A stretch of DNA of 64,000 bases, taken from Eledone cirrhosa. Lineage: Eukaryota. The position numbers were made by a program, and so were the translations under genes. Of the stretch, positions 5,704-64,000 are shown piece by piece. The stretch's first letter is position 1. The number at the start of each line of letters is the position of its first letter. The notes beneath the pieces are model-generated. The model was not told the origin of the DNA. It worked only from the letters and a program-made list of their open reading frames with translations, and did no database searches. The stretch covers positions 361,584,001 through 361,648,000 of the forward strand of contig OZ024742.1 in the NCBI GenBank assembly GCA_964016885.1, given 5' to 3'.

Positions 5704-6090
5704 TCAGCTTCGCTAAGGTGAAAATAATACTAACTAGAGACAATAGGGTTTGCCAGACTCAATTTAAGAATAAATCAAAAAAAGAAATACAAACCGGAAT
5801 TGTGGTAAGTACCAATCACCCAGACACCTTTGGTAATGCTGTTTCGCAAAATTAATTGTGAAGAGGAATACCAATTCTTGCTCATCAGTGGATGAAGAAT
5901 TATTATCATGGACATTTCTAAGTATATTAAAAAACTGAATAGTGTGCGTATATATAACGCACATGGTTTCTGAACTTAGCGTGTCTCACAAACTCACACC
6001 ACTAAAGATAGCAGCCAAGTTTGTATTTATTTTATTGATTTATTCTTAAATTGTCTATAGTTAGTATTCTTTTCACCTTAGCGAATCTGA
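5704..6090. repeat. Head-to-head inverted duplication enclosing a hammerhead (PLE pseudo-LTR-like)
   Basis: 5704-5794 is the reverse complement of 6019-6090, with a few mismatches and one ~19-bp indel. Confidence 0.75.
5816..5895 (-). ncRNA. Type I hammerhead ribozyme
   Basis: Minus strand: TCATCCA-CTGATGA-GCAAGA..TTTTGC-GAAA-CAGC..GGTG-TC-TGGGTGA; 7-bp stem I, intact core, GUC cleavage triplet. Confidence 0.8.
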
Positions 6091-6336: not shown

Positions 6337-6412
6337 CGAAGGAAATGTGGTAAGGAACCAGGTGGACCATAACGCACCAAAGTACTCAATACTTGAGGTA
6401 GTAGAGTGGGTA

Positions 6413-6523
6413 ATAGGAACCAGTAATACCCCGACAGCTGAGCTCAATCCGTTTCGACGGCTAATTCTGTCCAGAATTAGCCGTCGAAACGGCTTGAGCT
6501 CAGCTGTCGGGGTCTTACTGGTT

Positions 6524-6528
<5 letters not shown>
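6413..6528. repeat. 116-bp near-perfect palindrome built from the 3' half of a hammerhead
   Basis: 57-bp arms, 2 mismatches, 2-nt loop; each arm reads CCGTC-GAAA-CGGCT..AGCTG-TC-GGGGT. Confidence 0.85.
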
Positions 6529-6583
<55 letters not shown>

Positions 6584-55479: not shown

Positions 55480-57890
55480 AGTCCAAACTCATTCATGGTC
55501 CATGTGGAGTCATCAATCCAGCCTCAGCCTGCATGAAAGATAAAAAATACAGCAAACATCATCCTAGAGCTTTTATTCGGGAAACTCGGACTGACAATAA
55601 TGGATACCCCCTTTATCGTAGGCGTAGACCAGAACATGGAGGCAATACTGCAAGCCTGACAGTTCGAGGAGAGGAGCTGACCATAAACAATCAGTGGGTC
55701 GTCCTACACAAGAAATTGTTGTGTAAACTTTTAAAATATCAACAAGGGCAGGGACATGGATACCTTTATTACTGACAAAGAACTCAATGATGGTGGGCTG
55801 GATGAGGTGAAACGGCATCAAACAGGTCGATACATCTCCAGCAATGAAGCTATCTGGCGAATCTTTGGATTTGATATCCACCAACGCCACCCAACAGTGG
55901 TCAACCTCGCAGTCCATCTGGAAAATGGACAGAGAGTGTACTTCACTGATATCACTGCTCATCAGTTGGCACAAGCATCACATGACACTAACTGCTTTCT
56001 TTAAACTCTGCCAGAATGATGAATTTGCTCGATCCCTCCTATATGCTGAAGTCCCAACAAACTACACCTGGACCAATTGCAAGGTCTGCATTCGAAGAAA
56101 GCAGGGTTATTTAGTGGAAGGTCATGAAGGCAAGTCAAAGGATGTTGTTGGGTGTGTTGACAATGTCCATCCCAACAACAGAGAATGTTTTTATTTATGG
56201 CTACTTCTGCATACTGTTCGAGGACCAACATCATTAGAGGATCTTAGGTGCTTCAGAGGAAGGGAGTGCGCAACATACCAAGAAGCATGTAAACAGCATG
56301 GACTCCTGCATGACAATGGACACTGGAAAAAGTGCCTAGAAGAAGCAGCAATCACTCAAGTAGCCAGTGAAATAAGACAATTATTTGCTATTATGCTCAC
56401 AGCATGTGGAATTTGATGAAGTTCATCTACTCTGGCTGGAGTACAAAAACAATATGCCAGACAACTATCTACACCTAGCTCGAAGACATCATGGCAATAT
56501 GTATATGGAATATACCCCCAAGATTTACAATCAAGCTCTCTGTGACCTGTCCCATCGAGTTCAGGCAATGAATAGCACATTAGCTAACTGCAGGATGCCA
56601 GAGCCAGATGAAGAAATGGAGGTAGCACAAGACATTTTTTCAGGAGACAAACTACGATATTCAAGCATTGCGTAAGTTTGTGGATTAAAATGAACCTCGA
56701 TTGATGGATGACCAGAAATACGCCTACCTCAACATCATCGAAAACATTCAAAATGACAGGGGAGGACTTTTCTTCATCGATGCTCCTGCTGGCACAGGCA
56801 AGACATTCCTCATAAACCTCCTGCTTGCAAAAGTTCGCCAAAAGCCACATATTGCCCTTGCTGTGGCCTCAACTGGCATTGCATCAACACTTCTGGATGG
56901 GAGAAGAACTGCACACTCCATGTTTAAGCTGCCCATAGATCTCACACAGCATGAACAATCTTTTTGCAACATCAAGAAGAACTCACCCAAGGGCAAGCTT
57001 CTGCAAACATGCAAGATGATAATTTGGGATGAAACTACTATGAGCCATAAAGGAGAAATTGAAGCTTTGGACCGGACGATAAGGGATCTGAGAGAAAATA
57101 GTTGCATAATGGGAGGAGTGACAATGGTTCTTGCTGGTGATTCAGACAAACTCTGCCTGTAATTCTTCGAGGGACTCGAGCTGATCAGGTCAATGCCTGT
57201 CTGAAAACATCCTATGTCTGACCCCACTTTCAACTGCTGAACCTTACAACCAACATGCGAATGCACTTAACTGGTGACGAAGGTGTCAGTGAGTTTGCCA
57301 TCCAACTACTTAAATTGGGAAATGGACTTCTTGAAAAGGACTCCAATGACCATATTCAGTTGTCATTTGGCCATATCATTGACACAGAACATGAACTGAT
57401 TGCCAGAGTGTTTCCAAACATTCAGACCAGGCGATGTGATCCGAAATGGCTCTGTGAACGAGCAATCTTAGCACCTAAAAATGTTGCTGTGAAATAAATC
57501 AACAGAAGGCTGCTGGAGATGTTACCGGGAGAGAAAATATGCTACAAATCAGTTGACACAATCACTTCTCAAGACCAGGTTGTAAACTATCCAACTGAAT
57601 TTAGGGTTGAATCTGGCAGATCCTGCCTTTTCACACGCTCAACTCTATGTTGGCACAACAAGGGCTGGAACCCTGATTGTCTCTTCATTGTGGCACCACA
57701 ATGCAAAACCAAGAATGTTGTTTAACCAGAGGCTTTGGAATGCGCAATGTCGTAATACCTCATTCAATGACAATACACACAGATCCTAATTCCTTAGTCA
57801 TGTAGTTTGCAAGGAATTCTGAAGCCGCAAATTTACTGCATGGTGTTACTTTGAAAGAATATGCAGACATTCCCGGGTAACTCTGCTATA
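55480..57890 (+). mobile_element. Helitron Rep-helicase pseudogene
   Basis: GYPLYRRR, NQWVV, GRYISSNEAIWRIF, LAVHLENGQ, Walker A DAPAGTGKT, IIWDE, LAGD, ERAILAPKN, FSHAQLYV; Helitron-type 3' hairpin also at 58407-58435. Confidence 0.9.
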
Positions 57891-58974
57891 TGAAGTAGTA
57901 TAAGTGAGGACTTTGTTGGGTAGAAATAGCAGCCAAATTTCCTTCAAATTCCACCTTTCCCCGAATTACAGAAATGAGTAAGTAAACGCTTCATTCGATC
58001 ATAAACCAATGATAAATTTATTTTCTTATTTTATTTATGGTTTTTTAAAATAGTCTTTACATGTTGTTTGAATTTCAGAGGTTCAGATTGAGCAAAGAAA
58101 AAAAAAGAAAGAAAGAAAGAAAAGGATAAATAAAAAAAAATCTAAATGTATTTTTTGCGTCAAGCCCTTTTCACTGACAACATACCCAATGATTCATCTA
58201 TGAGTAAAGTATTATATATGCTGACTGTAATAGGGAGCAGTATTCAAAAAATCACCACTGGAAAAAACTAATATTTTTATCTAGATGATTTATTTGACCA
58301 AACGGCAATAAATATTCTGCTTTACTTTCGTTAAAATTCAGCAATTATATTTGAATGGTCAAATATTTTGTAATGTGTGCCAAATATATTGTAACTTTCA
58401 TAAAATACCCGGGTATCACCGGGTAGCTCAGCTAAAATAAAAATGAAATTGTTATTGTTGTTATTGCAATTTATATATTTATACTACTACTGCTGAGTTG
58501 TTACAACGTCTGATAATATTGGAGTTTTGGAGAGGAGATAGCTTGGATTTTATTTACCTATTGACACCCACGGACACACACACATATACACGCATACGCA
58601 TACACGGACACACAGACACACACACATACATGCAGCCACACACACAGACACACACACACATTCACAGACACACATACACACAGACAGGCAGACACACACA
58701 CACACAGACACACATATGAGCTTAACGGAACCAAAAAAGACACATATACGACACTCGCATTCACTGGATGCAAATTCCGTAACAACTGCTTGTGATGTAT
58801 ATATATATATATATGGGAGGAGGTTATAGTTCACTTGAAGCATTGTGTAATGAGGTATAAACGTTAGAATATGTGTAATAAGGCCAAGACAATGCAGATA
58901 TGGACATAGAAAAAGAATGCAATAGTGAGAGATATTGATGAGGATTCGTCTTTCACCTTGAATTTATTTAAATG

Positions 58975-59012
58975 TCCTTAATTTTCGAGATAATATCTCT
59001 TCTTCGGAGGGA
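58975..59012 (-). ncRNA. Atypical minimal hammerhead candidate in the PLE 3' UTR
   Basis: CCT-CCGAAGA-aGAGATattATCTC-GAAA-AT-TA-AGG, then AATAAA; short stems and one extra A. Confidence 0.4.
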
Positions 59013-59385
59013 AGTAAAAGTCTCAGACCAGCGTCTAAATTTCCAATGAAGCCATGCTGACCGGAAATAGTATAGAGTTCTAACTTTAATATCAAAGAAT
59101 TAAAATTAGGTGGGTAAAGAGTAGTCTCCCTTTAAGAGGGGTTTGTTTATGTTTTTGTTGTGTTTTTTAAATTTTATATGCGTGTCTGTATATGTGTGTG
59201 GGAGAAAGCATGAAGGTGTAGGTATGTGTGTGTGTGAGTGTGGGAAGATAGGTCTAATCGTAAAAGTGGGGGGTAGGTGTTATCTGGTGTTAGAACTGGT
59301 TTTGTGTGTGTATGTGTGAGAGAGAATAAGTGGAGGTGTGTGCGTGCGTGTGTGTGGGGTGTGTAAAGTGGGGCTAGAGGCCCTA

Positions 59386-61326
59386 TCAGGTTATAAATTG
59401 GGTGTTGAGCTCTAGTCTATTATTGATTGGTGGATGTGTTCTATCTATAATGAGTGCTTCCTTGATTCTAAGATTACCGAGGTTTCTTTCTTTAGTTTCT
59501 ATCCTAACTGTTATGTTTTTATCAGTGTTTTTGCATTTAACTAGGTGTTTCTTAAATGAGGAAGCGTTAGTATTGAGGTGTTCTTTTATTCTTATGTGGA
59601 GTGGTCTGGTGGTGCTACCTACGTAGAAGTTGTTGCATTTGTCACACTCTAGTCTGTAAACTACGTAAGCCTGGTGGCATAGGTCTGTGTCGTTGATGGG
59701 GCAGTTGGCTAGTCTGCAGCAGTTGTCATGTCTGGTGGAGTGTCTCTTAGCTAGCCGTCCACGCAAAGAAGGACCCGAATGGGCCAGTTGAATATCCAGA
59801 CCTTCTCGTCTGATGGCTCTGCGGATGGCTGTTGTTGTTTCTTCACTGAAGTGTGGGAGCTTCAGGAAGCAAGTGTTAGTGCCTCGGGTGTGGTGTCCTC
59901 TGTTCTTTCTGGCACGGTTTGTGGTGGATGTCGTGTATCCGTTCAGTTTGAGTACTTCCAGGAAATGTGTGGTGTGTGTGTCTCGGTCTCTGGCGTCGGT
60001 GCATTTGTTCTTGATACGTGCCAGTTCGTTCTTTATGTATCCGAACTTGGCACCGAGTGGGAGGGCCGATCTGAAATGTACGAACAGGTCCCTGCTGGCG
60101 GATTTTTTATAGAAGCAGGTGTGGATGTTGCCTTCCTCTGTTACCCTGAGTTGGAAGTCCAGCAGGGATAGGGATCCGCGGTCATCGGGGTGTTCTATGC
60201 TGAACTTTATACTGGCGTCCATGCTGGAGAATGTTGTGTATATTTTCTCTGCCTCTTCACGGGATGATGTAAGGATGAGTATGTCATCTACATATCGGGT
60301 GAAGAAGGCATGGGAATGGCAGGTGTTGAGGGCTCGGCATTCTAGCTGGTTCATGTAAGTGATGGCCAGCAGGCCAGAGAGGCTGGATCCCATGGGTAAT
60401 CCTGTTGTCTGTCTGTATGTGTGGTGGTGGAAGGTGAAGTACGTGTTGTCTACCGTGAAGGACAAAAGTTGGTGTATGTCCGTCGGGTGGAGGCCGTAGC
60501 AGTGGATGTTCTCTGCGACCACGCAGTCCGTCAATAAATCGACAGCTGGGTGAGCGGGGACTGTAGTGTAGAGGGAGACAACGTCGAGGCTAAAAGCGTA
60601 TTTATTAAGTTTAAGTTGTTCTGGCTGGAGTTGGTGTAATCTACGTATAACTTCGTCGGAGCTACTGACATGTCCGGGGAAGGTGGAGAGTAGAGGCTTG
60701 AGGACCTGGGAGAGAAGCCAGGAAATTTTGTATAGGGGTCCTTCTATGCTAGAGACGATGGGTCTTATATGCGTCTTAGTGCTATTCTTGTGGGTCTTGA
60801 TGAGGTGGTAGAAAGTGGGCAGTCTGCTATTTCTAGTGGTGTAGTTGAGTTTAATTTTATTCGGGAGTTGTCTTCTCCTACAGATATCGAACCAAATGGA
60901 GTTGGTCTGTTTTTCGATTTGGGCTGCGGTCATGTCCGGGATCACTGTGTACAGTTCACTGTCGCTTAGGTGTTCGAAGGCTAGGTTATTGTATGTGGCT
61001 TGAGAGATGACGCAGAACTCTTTACCTTTGTCGGATGGTAAGTAAATAAGTTCCTTATTCCGTAGGTTCTTCAGGGCGAGTTGTTGTGTCCTGGAGAGGT
61101 TAGGGGCCACCTTCTTCTGTTTCCGTAAGATGTTAAATACGGAATGTTTTAGTCTCGAGAGTTTATCTTCCAGCTCGCGGTTGGCGGGCGGTGGATAGAG
61201 TGGGCGATCTAGTTGGTATATCGGGAATCTGTATACATACATATATGTATACAGACGTACAGTAGCATGCACATATATATATATATATACATATATATAT
61301 ACATATGCATACAGGTACACATACAT
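59386..61326 (-). CDS. Penelope-like element RT + GIY-YIG endonuclease (Neptune/Nematis-type Cys-rich linker); 5'-truncated, first ~33 aa come from the fused repeat
   Basis: Uninterrupted frame with PSDKG, LIKTHK..IRPIVS, SLDVVSLYT, GLPMGSSLS, RYVDD, LSLLD, CRLANC..C, VVYRLECDKCNNFYVGST.R.L..R..EH, LRIKEALII. Confidence 0.92.
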   Translation of the reverse strand: MYVYLYAYVYIYVYIYIYVHATVRLYTYMYVYRFPIYQLDRPLYPPPANRELEDKLSRLKHSVFNILRKQKKVAPNLSRTQQLALKNLRNKELIYLPSDKGKEFCVISQATYNNLAFEHLSDSELYTVIPDMTAAQIEKQTNSIWFDICRRRQLPNKIKLNYTTRNSRLPTFYHLIKTHKNSTKTHIRPIVSSIEGPLYKISWLLSQVLKPLLSTFPGHVSSSDEVIRRLHQLQPEQLKLNKYAFSLDVVSLYTTVPAHPAVDLLTDCVVAENIHCYGLHPTDIHQLLSFTVDNTYFTFHHHTYRQTTGLPMGSSLSGLLAITYMNQLECRALNTCHSHAFFTRYVDDILILTSSREEAEKIYTTFSSMDASIKFSIEHPDDRGSLSLLDFQLRVTEEGNIHTCFYKKSASRDLFVHFRSALPLGAKFGYIKNELARIKNKCTDARDRDTHTTHFLEVLKLNGYTTSTTNRARKNRGHHTRGTNTCFLKLPHFSEETTTAIRRAIRREGLDIQLAHSGPSLRGRLAKRHSTRHDNCCRLANCPINDTDLCHQAYVVYRLECDKCNNFYVGSTTRPLHIRIKEHLNTNASSFKKHLVKCKNTDKNITVRIETKERNLGNLRIKEALIIDRTHPPINNRLELNTQFIT

Positions 61327-61451
61327 ATATGCACGTATCAGTTTAGCGGCGCTAACGTCGCTTTATTCGTTTGTAAACAAACTGAACAGCCTGAATTTAT
61401 GCCATACGGTGTTAAGGCAACCACGTCACCTTTTTGTTCAACACTGACACA
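61231..61451 (-). repeat. Inverted partial copy of the 466-bp unit, fused to the PLE ORF
   Basis: Reverse complement of about 61731-61950 with one clear substitution. Confidence 0.9.
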
Positions 61452-61683
61452 TACTGTACGTCTGTATACATATATGTATGTACGTATACATGCATACTTA
61501 CATTTAAGTAAGTGCCATACTAAGAGTGAGAAATGAAATTTCGTTTTCATTTTGTTTCAATTTATCGTTTTCGGTATGCCTGACCGATTTAACTCACTCA
61601 ATATGCAAATTAGGCTGCTCAGCCGTTAATTTTCATAAGGAAAGTATATACTTTCGAACGTTCAACTATCTGGCAGATGGGTA

Positions 61684-61728
61684 AACGGTGCTGATGATAG
61701 CTAACAAGCTTGAAACTAGTACATCGTT
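61684..61728 (+). ncRNA. Minimal type I hammerhead ribozyme, copy 1
   Basis: AACGGTG-CTGATGA-tAGCTaacaAGCTt-GAAA-CTAG-TA-CATCGTT; predicted cleavage after GUA (A61721). Confidence 0.9.
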
Positions 61729-62149
61729 CCTGTGTCAGTGTTGAACAAAAAGGTGACGTGGTTGCCTTAACACCGTATGGCATAAATTCAGGCTGTTCAG
61801 TTTGTTTACAAACGAACAAAGCGACGTTAGCGCCGCTAAACTGATACGTGCATATATGTATGTGTACCTGTATGCATATGTATATATATATGTATATATA
61901 TATATATATGTGCATGCTACTGTACGTCTGTATACATATATGTATGTACGTATACATGCATACTTACATTTAAGTAAGTGCCATACTAAGAGTGAGAAAT
62001 GAAATTTCGTTTTCATTTTGTTTCAATTTATTGTTTTCGGTATGCCTGACCGATTTAACTCACTCAATATGCAAATTAGGCTGCTCAGCCGTTAATTTTC
62101 ATAAGGAAAGTATATACTTTCGAACGTTCAACTATCTGGCAGATGGGTA

Positions 62150-62194
62150 AACGGTGCTGATGATAGCTAACAAGCTTGAAACTAGTACATCGTT
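62150..62194 (+). ncRNA. Minimal type I hammerhead ribozyme, copy 2
   Basis: Identical to copy 1, 466 nt downstream. Confidence 0.9.
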
Positions 62195-62428
62195 CCTGTG
62201 TCAGTGTTGAACAAAAAGGTGACGTGGTTGCCTTAACACCGTATGGCATAAATTCAGGCTGTTCAGTTTGTTTACAAACGAACAAAGCGACGTTAGCGCC
62301 GCTAAACTGATACGTGCATATATGTATGTGTACCTGTATGCATATGTATATATATATGTATATATATATATATGTGCATGCTACTGTACGTCTGTATACA
62401 TATATGTATGTACGTATACATGCATACT

Positions 62429-62472
<44 letters not shown>

Positions 62473-62899
62473 AGGAGACAGATAAAATAGACATTATATT
62501 GTCTCTTCAACCTTTAGATGGTCAATGGTTTCGAGAATTTAACTAAAATAAAAAATTAAATTAAATATAATTAAATAAGTAGGGGTTCTCTTTTTCAAAG
62601 AGATATAGAAGGAACATTAAAAAAGATTAATACGACTCCTTATGTGTATCTCACAGTCCAGGATTGACCCTCAGTCCTCGATTCAACCCCCAGACCACAA
62701 TTGAACACCGAAACCAGGATCTCACCATCTCTGGTACTTCCCACTAAGCTACCGAGACTGATACAAAGATTTACTGAAAATTAATATTTATAAACCTACT
62801 TTCAAAATACAATTAATTACTTTAAATTAAATTAAAATTAAATGAAATAAATCGACATTGGGGTTCTAAACTTTAATATATATATATATATATATATAG

Positions 62900-64000
62900 G
62901 TAGAATCAGTAAGTACATATTAGATCGTATTATCCCTCAAGTTAAGGCTAAGGTAAATATTAAATTATGGGGTAATACTCAACAGGCAATAAGTTGGTTC
63001 AATAACATTAGTGACAAAAACAAATCTTCTTTTATTCAATTCGATATAGATGAATACTATTCCTCTATTTCACCTGAAACTCTGCATAAGGCCCTCTCAT
63101 TCGCTAAGGTTAACTCGGACCTCACAAACGAGGATATTAATATTATACTTGAAGCTAGACGCACAGTAGTCCATTTTGAAAATAGTTATTGGGTCCGCAG
63201 GGATAGACCATCGGAATTTGACATTACGATGGGTTCTAATGATTCGGCGGAAGTTACGGATTTGGTTTGAATCTATATAGCTCACAGACTCCAGACGAAT
63301 TTATTGACCTCCACGGCGGAATCTACCGTGATGATGCACTCCTATTAGTCAAAAATATGAACAAACAAAACCTAGAAAGGCGACGTAAAAACATTAGGAA
63401 ACTTTTCTTAGAACTAGGACTTAGTATTACCTTCGAACACAATCTTAAAGTGGTCAATTTCTTGGTTGTCACCTTCAACCTTAATAACGGTAATATAAAG
63501 CCATTTCACAAACTTAATGAAAATCTCAAATACGTTAATGTAAGATCGAACCATCCACATTCCATTATTAAATCTATCCCTAAAAATATATCCATAAGGA
63601 TCTCCCGACTATCGTCTAATTTGCAGACCTTCAACGAGCATGCTGAGTATTATAACGACGCACTTAGAAAAGCTGGTTACTGCGAGAAAATAGAATATCT
63701 AGAAGATAACCACATAGGTACTATGAATAAATCACATCTAAGTCGAACTAGTATTGCACCACACAGACACATTAATAGGCATAATAATAGGTGCAAACCT
63801 ACAAATAGAGTTAGACGTAGAGAGTACATATGGTATAACCCCGTGTACAATATTTCTATTAGCACTAAGATTATCTCACAATTCTATACACTGATCAATA
63901 AACACTTTACAATTTCACATAAATACTATAAAATCTTAAACTCGCGCACCATTAGACTCTCATACTCCACTGCACCTAACATAGAACAACTAATTAAAAA
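62900..64000 (+). pseudogene. Second, unrelated Penelope-like RT (YRDD type), decayed, runs off the window
   Basis: Manual translation: FIQFDIDEYYSSI, FDITMGSNDSAEVTDLV*, GGIYRDDAL, VVNFL, SNHP, WYNP, LSYST. Confidence 0.75.

Follow-up and report, generated by a model that had tools for sequence, protein, structure and literature searches.

Does the joining of a Penelope-like element (PLE) to a tandem hammerhead repeat record a single integration event involving two RNAs, and does it reveal which enzyme moves the repeat? The question is raised by a block in the genome of Eledone cirrhosa (contig OZ024742.1), within a stretch of 64,000 nucleotides that we call the window. The features of the block are listed in table 1. 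Its architecture is as given in the preliminary description: a piece of the 466-bp unit (221 nt) abuts a truncated open PLE ORF with no spacer, about 2.1 near-identical units (period 466, 99%) follow in the opposite orientation, and both outer ends border (TA)n. The minus-strand reading frame is indeed open through the junction (59386–61362), but this read-through is of no consequence because the added codons are TA repeat and the first 246 residues of the protein are missing.

Table 1. Features of the PLE–retrozyme block (window positions).
Feature	Position	Strand	Remarks
Left (TA)n target tract	58798..58814		in paralogs, TA tract kept behind the matching flank
PLE 3′ UTR/pLTR	58816..59385	-	stops at 58816, the long (tail-bearing) 3′ end that is fixed in the family; contains the native PLE ATG
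Minimal hammerhead candidate of the PLE	~58976..59010	-	predicted; features per PMC4209133
PLE ORF, 5′-truncated, uninterrupted	59386..61230	-	RT with YVDD and C-terminal GIY-YIG
PLE–retrozyme junction	61229..61233	-	TA spacer absent
Retrozyme piece	61234..61451	-	monomer positions 10–227, PLE-sense; 217/218 identical
Retrozyme right arm	61452..62433	+	positions 197–466, 1–466, 1–246; terminates at the short 3′ end of the family
Type I hammerhead motif 1	61684..61728	+	motif at 61691; predicted cleavage after 61721
Type I hammerhead motif 2	62150..62194	+	motif at 62157; predicted cleavage after 62187
Right (TA)n target tract	62434..62469		in paralogs, a tract distinct from the left one

At the junction, 3 nt match neither parent in register and can be read as a 4-nt slip plus a 2-nt (CA) microhomology. 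The junction sequence occurs once in the 3.0-Gb assembly when up to one mismatch is allowed. The inverted retrozyme piece is missing the final 83 nt before the long end; its sequence is entirely present within the right arm, to which it is joined bluntly, head to head.

The PLE part (59389–61230) matches RVT_1 (E 5.8e-16) and GIY-YIG (E 9e-05). Like canonical EN+ PLEs, the element has a single ORF with RT plus a GIY-YIG domain at the C terminus, a CCHH arrangement with two cysteines in the GIY-YIG core (CDKC between two tyrosine motifs and two later histidines, read by eye from the translation), partial pLTR tandems, an inverted 5′-truncated arm and a tail of 30–40 nt at one end. The ORF retains 614 of the approximately 860 aa of the native protein, seen in copy L005, and lacks its first 246 residues. 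The closest named homologues are proteins of Octopus bimaculoides (61–63%). With three private differences in 2,415 nt, this truncated copy is young by sequence divergence. A 33-mer of the PLE 3′ end has 1,401 exact matches, and in 69 of 70 two-arm PLE insertions a long 3′ end (58816 in this copy) is paired with a short one lying 40 nt further in. The pLTR holds its own putative ribozyme, different from that of the 466-bp unit: a minimal hammerhead candidate with a 3-bp helix I, a bulged A, a 5-bp helix II and a palindromic AAUU. The core reads CCGAAGA in young copies and CUGAAGA in older ones; the predicted motif is conserved in more than 180 counted occurrences, young copies having U4C and the 3-bp helix I.

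The 466-bp unit has features of a non-LTR retrozyme. It is short and non-coding, is repeated in tandem and bears one type I hammerhead motif per copy, its arrays reach at least 17 hammerhead motifs (L216), and it is dispersed in high copy number without dependence on an ORF; an exact-pattern count gave 10,198 genome-wide matches to the 39-mer of its hammerhead. The motif has a 7-bp helix I, a 4-bp helix II and a palindromic CUAG helix III, and its core holds CUGAUGA, GAAA and UA. A U-U stands at G10.1-C11.1, G-C being the usual pair at this position of the hammerhead core; an older subfamily shows a G-U to U-G swap in helix I. An Rfam scan did not find the hammerhead and returned only TA-repeat or low-complexity miRNA look-alikes below the cut-off.

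Two other identities were considered for the unit. That it might be the normal 5′ leader or pLTR of the fused PLE is rejected: other copies of the PLE have their own 710-nt 5′ region and pLTR, none of L002–L030 carries the unit, and the unit shows no similarity to the pLTR of the fused PLE (best E 0.61), in agreement with its first reading as unlike the 3′ UTR. That it might be the pLTR of another PLE is unsupported in 50 retrozyme stretches and 30 GIY-YIG loci of 10,594 candidates; in these 30 loci, BLAST with the unit gave homology only to one adjacent retrozyme copy. One of these loci, L309, was misoriented when their 3′ ends were listed, with no bearing on the BLAST result. None of the 50 retrozyme stretches touches the fused PLE. 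Because the unit is absent from other PLE copies and retrozyme stretches do not touch the PLE, the unit is, as judged from these comparisons, a free-standing non-LTR retrozyme.

Retrozyme insertions in (TA)n consist of arms placed head to head. In 17 of 17 pairs scored automatically, the 3′ end of one arm is long and that of the other short; one two-arm insertion read manually appears to be short + short (L057). The two predicted start sites lie at monomer positions ~247–251 and 305–310. A PLE protein studied in purified form cleaves and extends both strands; it initiates at a pair of internal sites, which set the tail, and has no need of hammerhead cleavage (PMC11167929). Since retrozyme copies end like PLE insertions, the family has very probably been moved by a PLE-type protein, not necessarily one of the fused PLE's family. 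The strongest support for PLE-type mobilization is this genome-wide signature of long and short ends, and not the single locus, which does not identify the mobilizer. The proposed partnership of PLE and retrozyme is thus supported in its general form, but the fusion cannot serve as proof of a mobilizer–cargo pair: young PLEs also fuse to other foreign DNA, and host DNA is missing at the site.

The left and right flanks of the block come from the same host segment, in the correct order and on the correct strand. The tracts that border the block are two (TA)n tracts, not one split tract: 5 of 5 paralogous segments with both flanks have 1.6–6.3 kb between them, missing at the locus. The contiguous empty site expected for a single-event insertion was not found in these five paralogs, and a target-site duplication cannot be defined in TA. 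The same TA tracts have been struck repeatedly in paralogs (L167, L168 and L170). Of 38 complete young PLE insertions, 8 carry foreign non-TA DNA fused to their 5′ end (hand count), and the partners include a piece with a Gypsy-type RNase H, LINE-like ORFs and the 3′ end of another PLE. Some of these fusions fall in the middle of an element whose continuation is absent on the far side (L249).

Given the missing host DNA and the foreign 5′ fusions, a later insertion with deletion would also explain the block. A two-arm retrozyme would have entered the right TA tract first; a PLE primed at the left tract would later have joined its 5′ end inside the long arm of the retrozyme, with loss of 83 nt of that arm and of the interior. 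Two separate insertions followed by a deletion between them would look the same. Besides the absent interior and the repeatedly targeted tracts, this order of events is suggested by the left retrozyme piece, which has the form of a long arm severed at position 227, by L179, where two complete young elements, one a PLE and the other a retrozyme, are independent neighbours 300 nt apart, 25 kb away, and by L101, where a PLE is fused approximately 60 nt inside another TA-targeting element in a way compatible with a short deletion. It requires that the retrozyme fall into the youngest class by chance (approximately 1 in 5), that its short end face outwards (1 in 2) and that the break fall in a 300-nt arm 2–3 kb away. 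Young–young fusions (L272 and L227) also seem commoner than random deletion predicts, in small numbers. We regard such a two-step origin as a real possibility, somewhat short of an even chance.

A single event, by whatever mechanism, is moderately probable, and the junction may go back to a joint insertion or to two successive steps. The outer ends of the block are the long end of the PLE and the short end of the retrozyme, a combination that favours a single event, and both parts are equally young. The retrozyme parts have two private differences in 1,203 nt; only approximately 10 of about 55 sampled retrozyme insertions are as close to the window unit (hand count).

Our preferred reading, nearly as likely to be right as wrong, is a two-ended co-insertion in which one repair event primed two cut (TA)n ends on two different RNAs. 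A GIY-YIG nuclease would cut (TA)n. The left end would be extended from the long start site for 2,415 nt on PLE mRNA. On the right, retrozyme RNA in multimeric or circular form would serve as template for 982 nt from the short start site, with two hammerhead sites read through. An inverted patch would then probably arise as the retrozyme cDNA copied 218 nt of its own sequence, and this cDNA would be joined to the PLE cDNA through the 2-nt microhomology, the host DNA between the TA tracts being lost during the event or earlier. The long + short rule, the equal youth of the two parts and a young–young precedent support this account, and inverted patches are known from three-piece insertions of this PLE (L130, L137 and L244/L245). 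In the precedent (L272), a 99.6% copy of this PLE with a long end stands head to head with a partner from another PLE family, joined by its 3′ end and having a short end; the partner is 100% identical over 179–181 nt to more than 40 other places. By contrast, the partner in L222 is old (≤97%), with short + short ends. Against co-insertion stand the absent interior, the 8/38 foreign 5′ fusions, the frequency of independent neighbours, the absence of any further PLE–retrozyme fusion among 136 PLE blocks and the apparent short + short ends of L057. Retrozymes lie within approximately 3.5 kb of 7 of 90 PLE 3′-end loci, a rate from samples biased to contig C1 and young copies.

The preliminary description had proposed a particular single event, in which the reverse transcriptase jumped from PLE mRNA to a self-cleaved retrozyme RNA. 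It would have landed near position 227 and copied to position 10, a second priming on that RNA giving the inverted arm. The PLE-sense orientation of the piece, the 2-nt microhomology, the pair of one long and one short end and the equal age of the parts are all consistent with a jump, as is the end of the piece 9 nt from the predicted cleavage site, a position that was correctly given. The landing site, though, is internal and not the cleaved 3′ end (466). Only 1 of 54 other retrozyme arm starts lies within 15 nt of the cleavage site (2.5 expected), in a hand-made list from which starts inside the TA-rich positions 110–250 are excluded. This offset is not above chance, and its reading as a cleaved RNA end is rejected. 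Where other three-piece insertions contain a patch, it is a self-copy in inverted orientation and does not stem from foreign RNA of the same sense, and none of the 136 other PLE blocks is alike. A jump of this kind is therefore unlikely. An AG at the junction was also considered as a splice acceptor and dropped, as it belongs to the native coding sequence of the PLE.

Assembly is difficult at inverted repeats and TA tracts, and the junction is absent from short contigs and RAD reads among the matches listed. A misassembly of two repeat loci is nevertheless very improbable: both flanks derive from one host segment, the base-level features of the junction are those of other PLE junctions, and the ends follow the long/short rule.

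The dependence of animal retrozymes on PLEs, which have been proposed as their mobilizers (Cervera & de la Pena 2020, PMC7229834), has so far been argued from co-occurrence and from homology to pLTRs; a retrozyme of 10,000 copies with a PLE-specific tail and inverted arms provides mechanistic evidence from a genome. A literature search, covering few subscription journals, found neither a PLE–retrozyme chimera nor a retrozyme tail signature. The family described here resembles animal non-LTR retrozymes in its non-coding tandem units with one type I hammerhead each, low GC, thousands of copies and absence of an LTR. It differs in unit length (466 nt, compared with invertebrate circles of ~170–400 nt) and in its two-armed (TA)n insertions, whose long and short ends are fixed, the word 'inverted' being absent from the main text of that paper (PMC7229834). 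In Xenopus, PLE dependence of retrozymes was likewise proposed, from co-occurrence and pLTR homology (Li, Clavereau & Pollet 2026, bioRxiv 10.64898/2026.07.22.740005). Here, homology to the fused PLE is undetectable; the accessible part of that preprint contains neither chimeras nor a tail signature. Non-autonomous Chlamys elements such as MRC1 are also non-coding head-to-tail insertions ascribed to PLE enzymes, but they resemble their autonomous partner at the 3′ end, and Chlamys is described as being without canonical hammerheads (PMC8557442).

With canonical EN+ PLEs, for example Anolis Poseidon (Frangieh et al. 2024, PMC11167929; Craig et al. 2021, PMC8557442), the PLE shares RT with C-terminal GIY-YIG, partial pLTR tandems, inverted 5′-truncated arms, a 40-nt tail at one end and an AT-rich target; its minimal pLTR hammerhead candidate may be a further common trait. 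The inverted arm here corresponds to another RNA, and the distance of the long end into the ORF is 29 nt, compared with 111–118 nt in PAc. If the present block and L272 each arose in a single event, the arms of PLE insertions derive from separate RNA templates, which would account for a long-noted oddity of PLE structure. It is possible, at a little under even probability, that a PLE dimer or two particles fill both ends of a break from two RNAs, always using one long and one short start. The locus would then be a fossil of the co-integration of PLE mRNA and retrozyme RNA, L272 likewise one of two PLE families, and the ~60-nt retrozyme tail would mark the RNA element by which the PLE protein is recruited.

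Pfam gave no family for the ORF of the second PLE or for the LINE-like piece of L249, so that both labels, based on sequence motifs, are presumptive. L1 chimeras and twin priming likewise involve two RNAs or two primings per insertion, and L1-mediated deletions combine target deletion with 5′ microhomology. L1 enzymes are poly(A)-primed and of the APE type, and are not known to use a fixed pair of internal start sites. The block would resemble L1 products in its two-RNA or two-priming insertion and its target deletion, and would differ from them in the fixed pair of start sites.

The anatomy given in the preliminary description, a 5'-truncated Penelope-like element (PLE) fused to a hammerhead retrozyme, is borne out by the open frame, its domain matches, the 466-bp array, the inverted piece and the hammerhead motifs. 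The closest named homologues of the PLE ORF are Octopus bimaculoides proteins (61–63%), which points to an octopod as the probable host. The hammerhead motif of the unit, not recognised in an Rfam scan, has U–U at the position where G10.1–C11.1 is usual; in an older subfamily, a G–U of helix I is swapped to U–G. The PLE–retrozyme junction occurs once in the whole 3.0-Gb assembly.

Features of the fused block and other elements of the window (window positions)
Feature	Position	Strand	Remarks
Open frame	61362–59386	minus	
RVT_1 and GIY-YIG	59389–61230	minus	part of the open frame
Inverted unit piece	61234–61451		218 nt
466-bp unit array	61452–62433		2.1 copies
Predicted type I hammerhead motif	predicted cuts after 61721 and 62187		7-bp helix I; one per unit
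Host-segment flanks	58000–58800 and 62470–62880		
Further type I hammerhead candidate	5823–5895	minus	longer helix III
Broken ORFs with helicase motifs	55735–57497	plus	resemble a Helitron Pif1 helicase
Degraded RT ORF fragment, another PLE-like	62897–64000	plus	begins at TA tract; resembles the second family's type by eye

The PLE and the retrozyme are separate families, both new but belonging to known kinds. A 39-mer from the retrozyme hammerhead has 10,198 exact matches in the genome, and a 33-mer from the PLE 3' region has 1,401. As had been proposed, the unit is not the pLTR of the PLE, with which it shares no sequence (best E 0.61). Other PLE copies do have a different 5' end: their ORF is about 860 aa long, and upstream they run into a 710-nt region and a pLTR that belong to the element itself; this rules out the unit as the usual 5' leader, and it is absent from all the PLE copies checked (loci L002–L030). 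Units also occur without this PLE, since none of the 50 retrozyme stretches contacts its family. The minimal hammerhead candidate of the PLE differs from that of the unit and resembles PLE hammerheads in its bulged base and palindromic helix III, features reported in the available text of PMC4209133. Judged on sequence, the unit corresponds to a non-LTR retrozyme as defined in the accessible part of PMC7229834. A GIY-YIG element at L325 (about 2140–2185) shares with the retrozyme, in its 3' UTR hammerhead motif, the U–U flank on helix II and a palindromic helix III; though without wider homology, it is a possible lead to the parent lineage of the retrozyme. A contig from a run labelled as another organism (run X4, record 17) is identical to the retrozyme over 365 nt and may come from a relative, from diet or from contamination.

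The strongest result of the analysis is the genome-wide end signature: two-arm insertions of the retrozyme, like those of the PLE, pair one long with one short end in (TA)n. PLE copies have two fixed end sites, 40 nt apart, each in (TA)n. Among 136 PLE blocks (109 complete), 70 are two-armed with canonical ends: 69 long + short, one short + short and none long + long. Retrozyme arms end in (TA)n at monomer position 305–310 or about 247–251, and all 17 two-arm pairs obtained by automated pairing in 50 stretches are long + short; one additional copy (L057) is short + short as judged by eye. The extra length of the long end, or tail, is known in PLEs, frequently on one end only (PMC8557442, in the text available), and is explained in the accessible part of PMC11167929 by two internal RT start sites, the protein cutting and extending both strands with no requirement for hammerhead cleavage. 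Because the arrays read through hammerhead sites, the retrozyme template is likely multimeric or circular. Spread of the retrozyme by PLE-type mobilisation is highly probable, and any of several TA-targeting PLE-like families in the genome could be the mobiliser. A preprint (10.64898/2026.07.22.740005) argues for PLE dependence of retrozymes from co-occurrence and pLTR homology; the end signature used here is not part of its argument in the text available, and our literature search found no retrozyme reported to carry such a tail signature. L007, L011, L013 and L029, four PLE copies that are among the longest, have a common start, perhaps that of the transcript, about 110 nt ahead of the long end. 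Fixed long and short ends also mark another short two-arm element, which targets TA and measures about 190 nt (L031:1774–1965, L170, L101/L228, L246; window about 6390–6580); at L101, the junction to an older PLE copy lies about 60 nt within the long arm of this element. At least five more families of hammerhead-like motifs recur in TA-rich flanks at many loci, and undescribed hammerhead elements seem to be abundant in this genome.

A second TA-targeting family, which we take to be PLE-like from its motifs, is active (L342, G000:C1:172345000–172351500, and L326–L335). It has a tandem spacing of 3,879 nt and many pLTR-only two-arm copies; its two 3' ends lie about 80 nt from each other, and its hammerhead motif reads CUGAGGA...GAAA. 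A Pfam search of it gave no match.

The outer ends of the fused block are long for the PLE and short for the retrozyme. Both parts are equally young, with three private differences in 2,415 nt of PLE and two in 1,203 nt of retrozyme; in a hand count, about 10 of the roughly 55 retrozyme insertions sampled are as close to the window unit. We tentatively read the block, at a little under an even chance, as a two-ended co-insertion: one insertion would have joined a PLE arm (long end) to a retrozyme arm (short end), and the 218-nt piece would be an inverted patch self-copied from the right arm. Three-piece insertions with such a patch are present in the family of the fused PLE. The sequence of the piece is entirely contained in the right arm, and therefore a jump of the RT onto foreign RNA is not needed. 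Such a jump, from the PLE mRNA onto a self-cleaved retrozyme RNA, had been proposed, with the piece noted as starting 9 nt after the cleavage site; however, only 1 of 54 other arm starts lies within 15 nt of that site, against 2.5 expected, which undermines the piece as a self-cleaved end. The jump is improbable.

An insertion made from two RNAs is most cleanly suggested at L272/L344 (G000:C4:215247336–215249373), where a young, 99.6% copy of the fused PLE with the long end is head-to-head with the young 3' end of the second PLE-like family, with 2 nt of microhomology at the junction. The partner piece, which matches more than 40 other places at 100% identity, starts at its own family's usual fold-back point and stops at the short end. 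In contrast, L222 has an old partner and two short ends, as a deletion would give.

The flanks of the block are part of a multi-copy host segment. In all five paralogues with both flanks, 1,609–6,307 nt separate two different TA tracts; eight of ten left-flank paralogues run on into this interior, whereas the remaining two continue into a long TA array and into some other sequence, respectively. Beside the fused block this interior is missing, and the insertion can therefore not be called clean. Many copies of the segment lie near contig ends and in regularly spaced runs, and internal deletions are frequent. Sequential insertion with deletion, which is quite possible though somewhat doubtful, would account for the missing interior. 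It is also favoured by the 5' ends of young PLE insertions (at least 98.5%), 8 of 38 complete ones being joined to non-TA foreign DNA in a hand count that omits one gapped locus and one running into another arm. Among the partners are other hammerhead elements as well as LINE-like ORFs, and a 95.7% copy is joined to a Gypsy-type RNase H, so that PLE fusions are not limited to cargo. Moreover, the PLE and the retrozyme can be independent neighbours, as at L179 (G000:C3:361668136–361673000), 25 kb right of the window, where complete young two-arm copies of both, a second young pair near the first, have nothing but TA repeat, about 300 nt long, between them. The long + short outer ends, the equal youth of the parts and the young–young precedent at L272 argue against sequential insertion. 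Given the missing interior, the foreign fusions, the neighbours at L179, the arm starts away from the cleavage site and the lack of a second fusion to this retrozyme among the 136 PLE blocks, the locus is weaker physical evidence of a partnership than the preliminary description took it to be.

Roughly estimated, the rates of co-insertion and of insertion with deletion are similar, and co-insertion is slightly favoured because of the L272 precedent; misassembly is very improbable. These gradings are judgements from small, C1-biased samples rather than computed posteriors. No hetero-armed PLE–retrozyme insertion was found reported in our literature search. Elsewhere (L042/L217:4886 and L191/L232:4131), retrozyme short-end arms are fused head-to-head, without TA, to a SINE-like element that is 5'-truncated and has (GAT)n at its end; at L042 the far side carries no retrozyme remainder.
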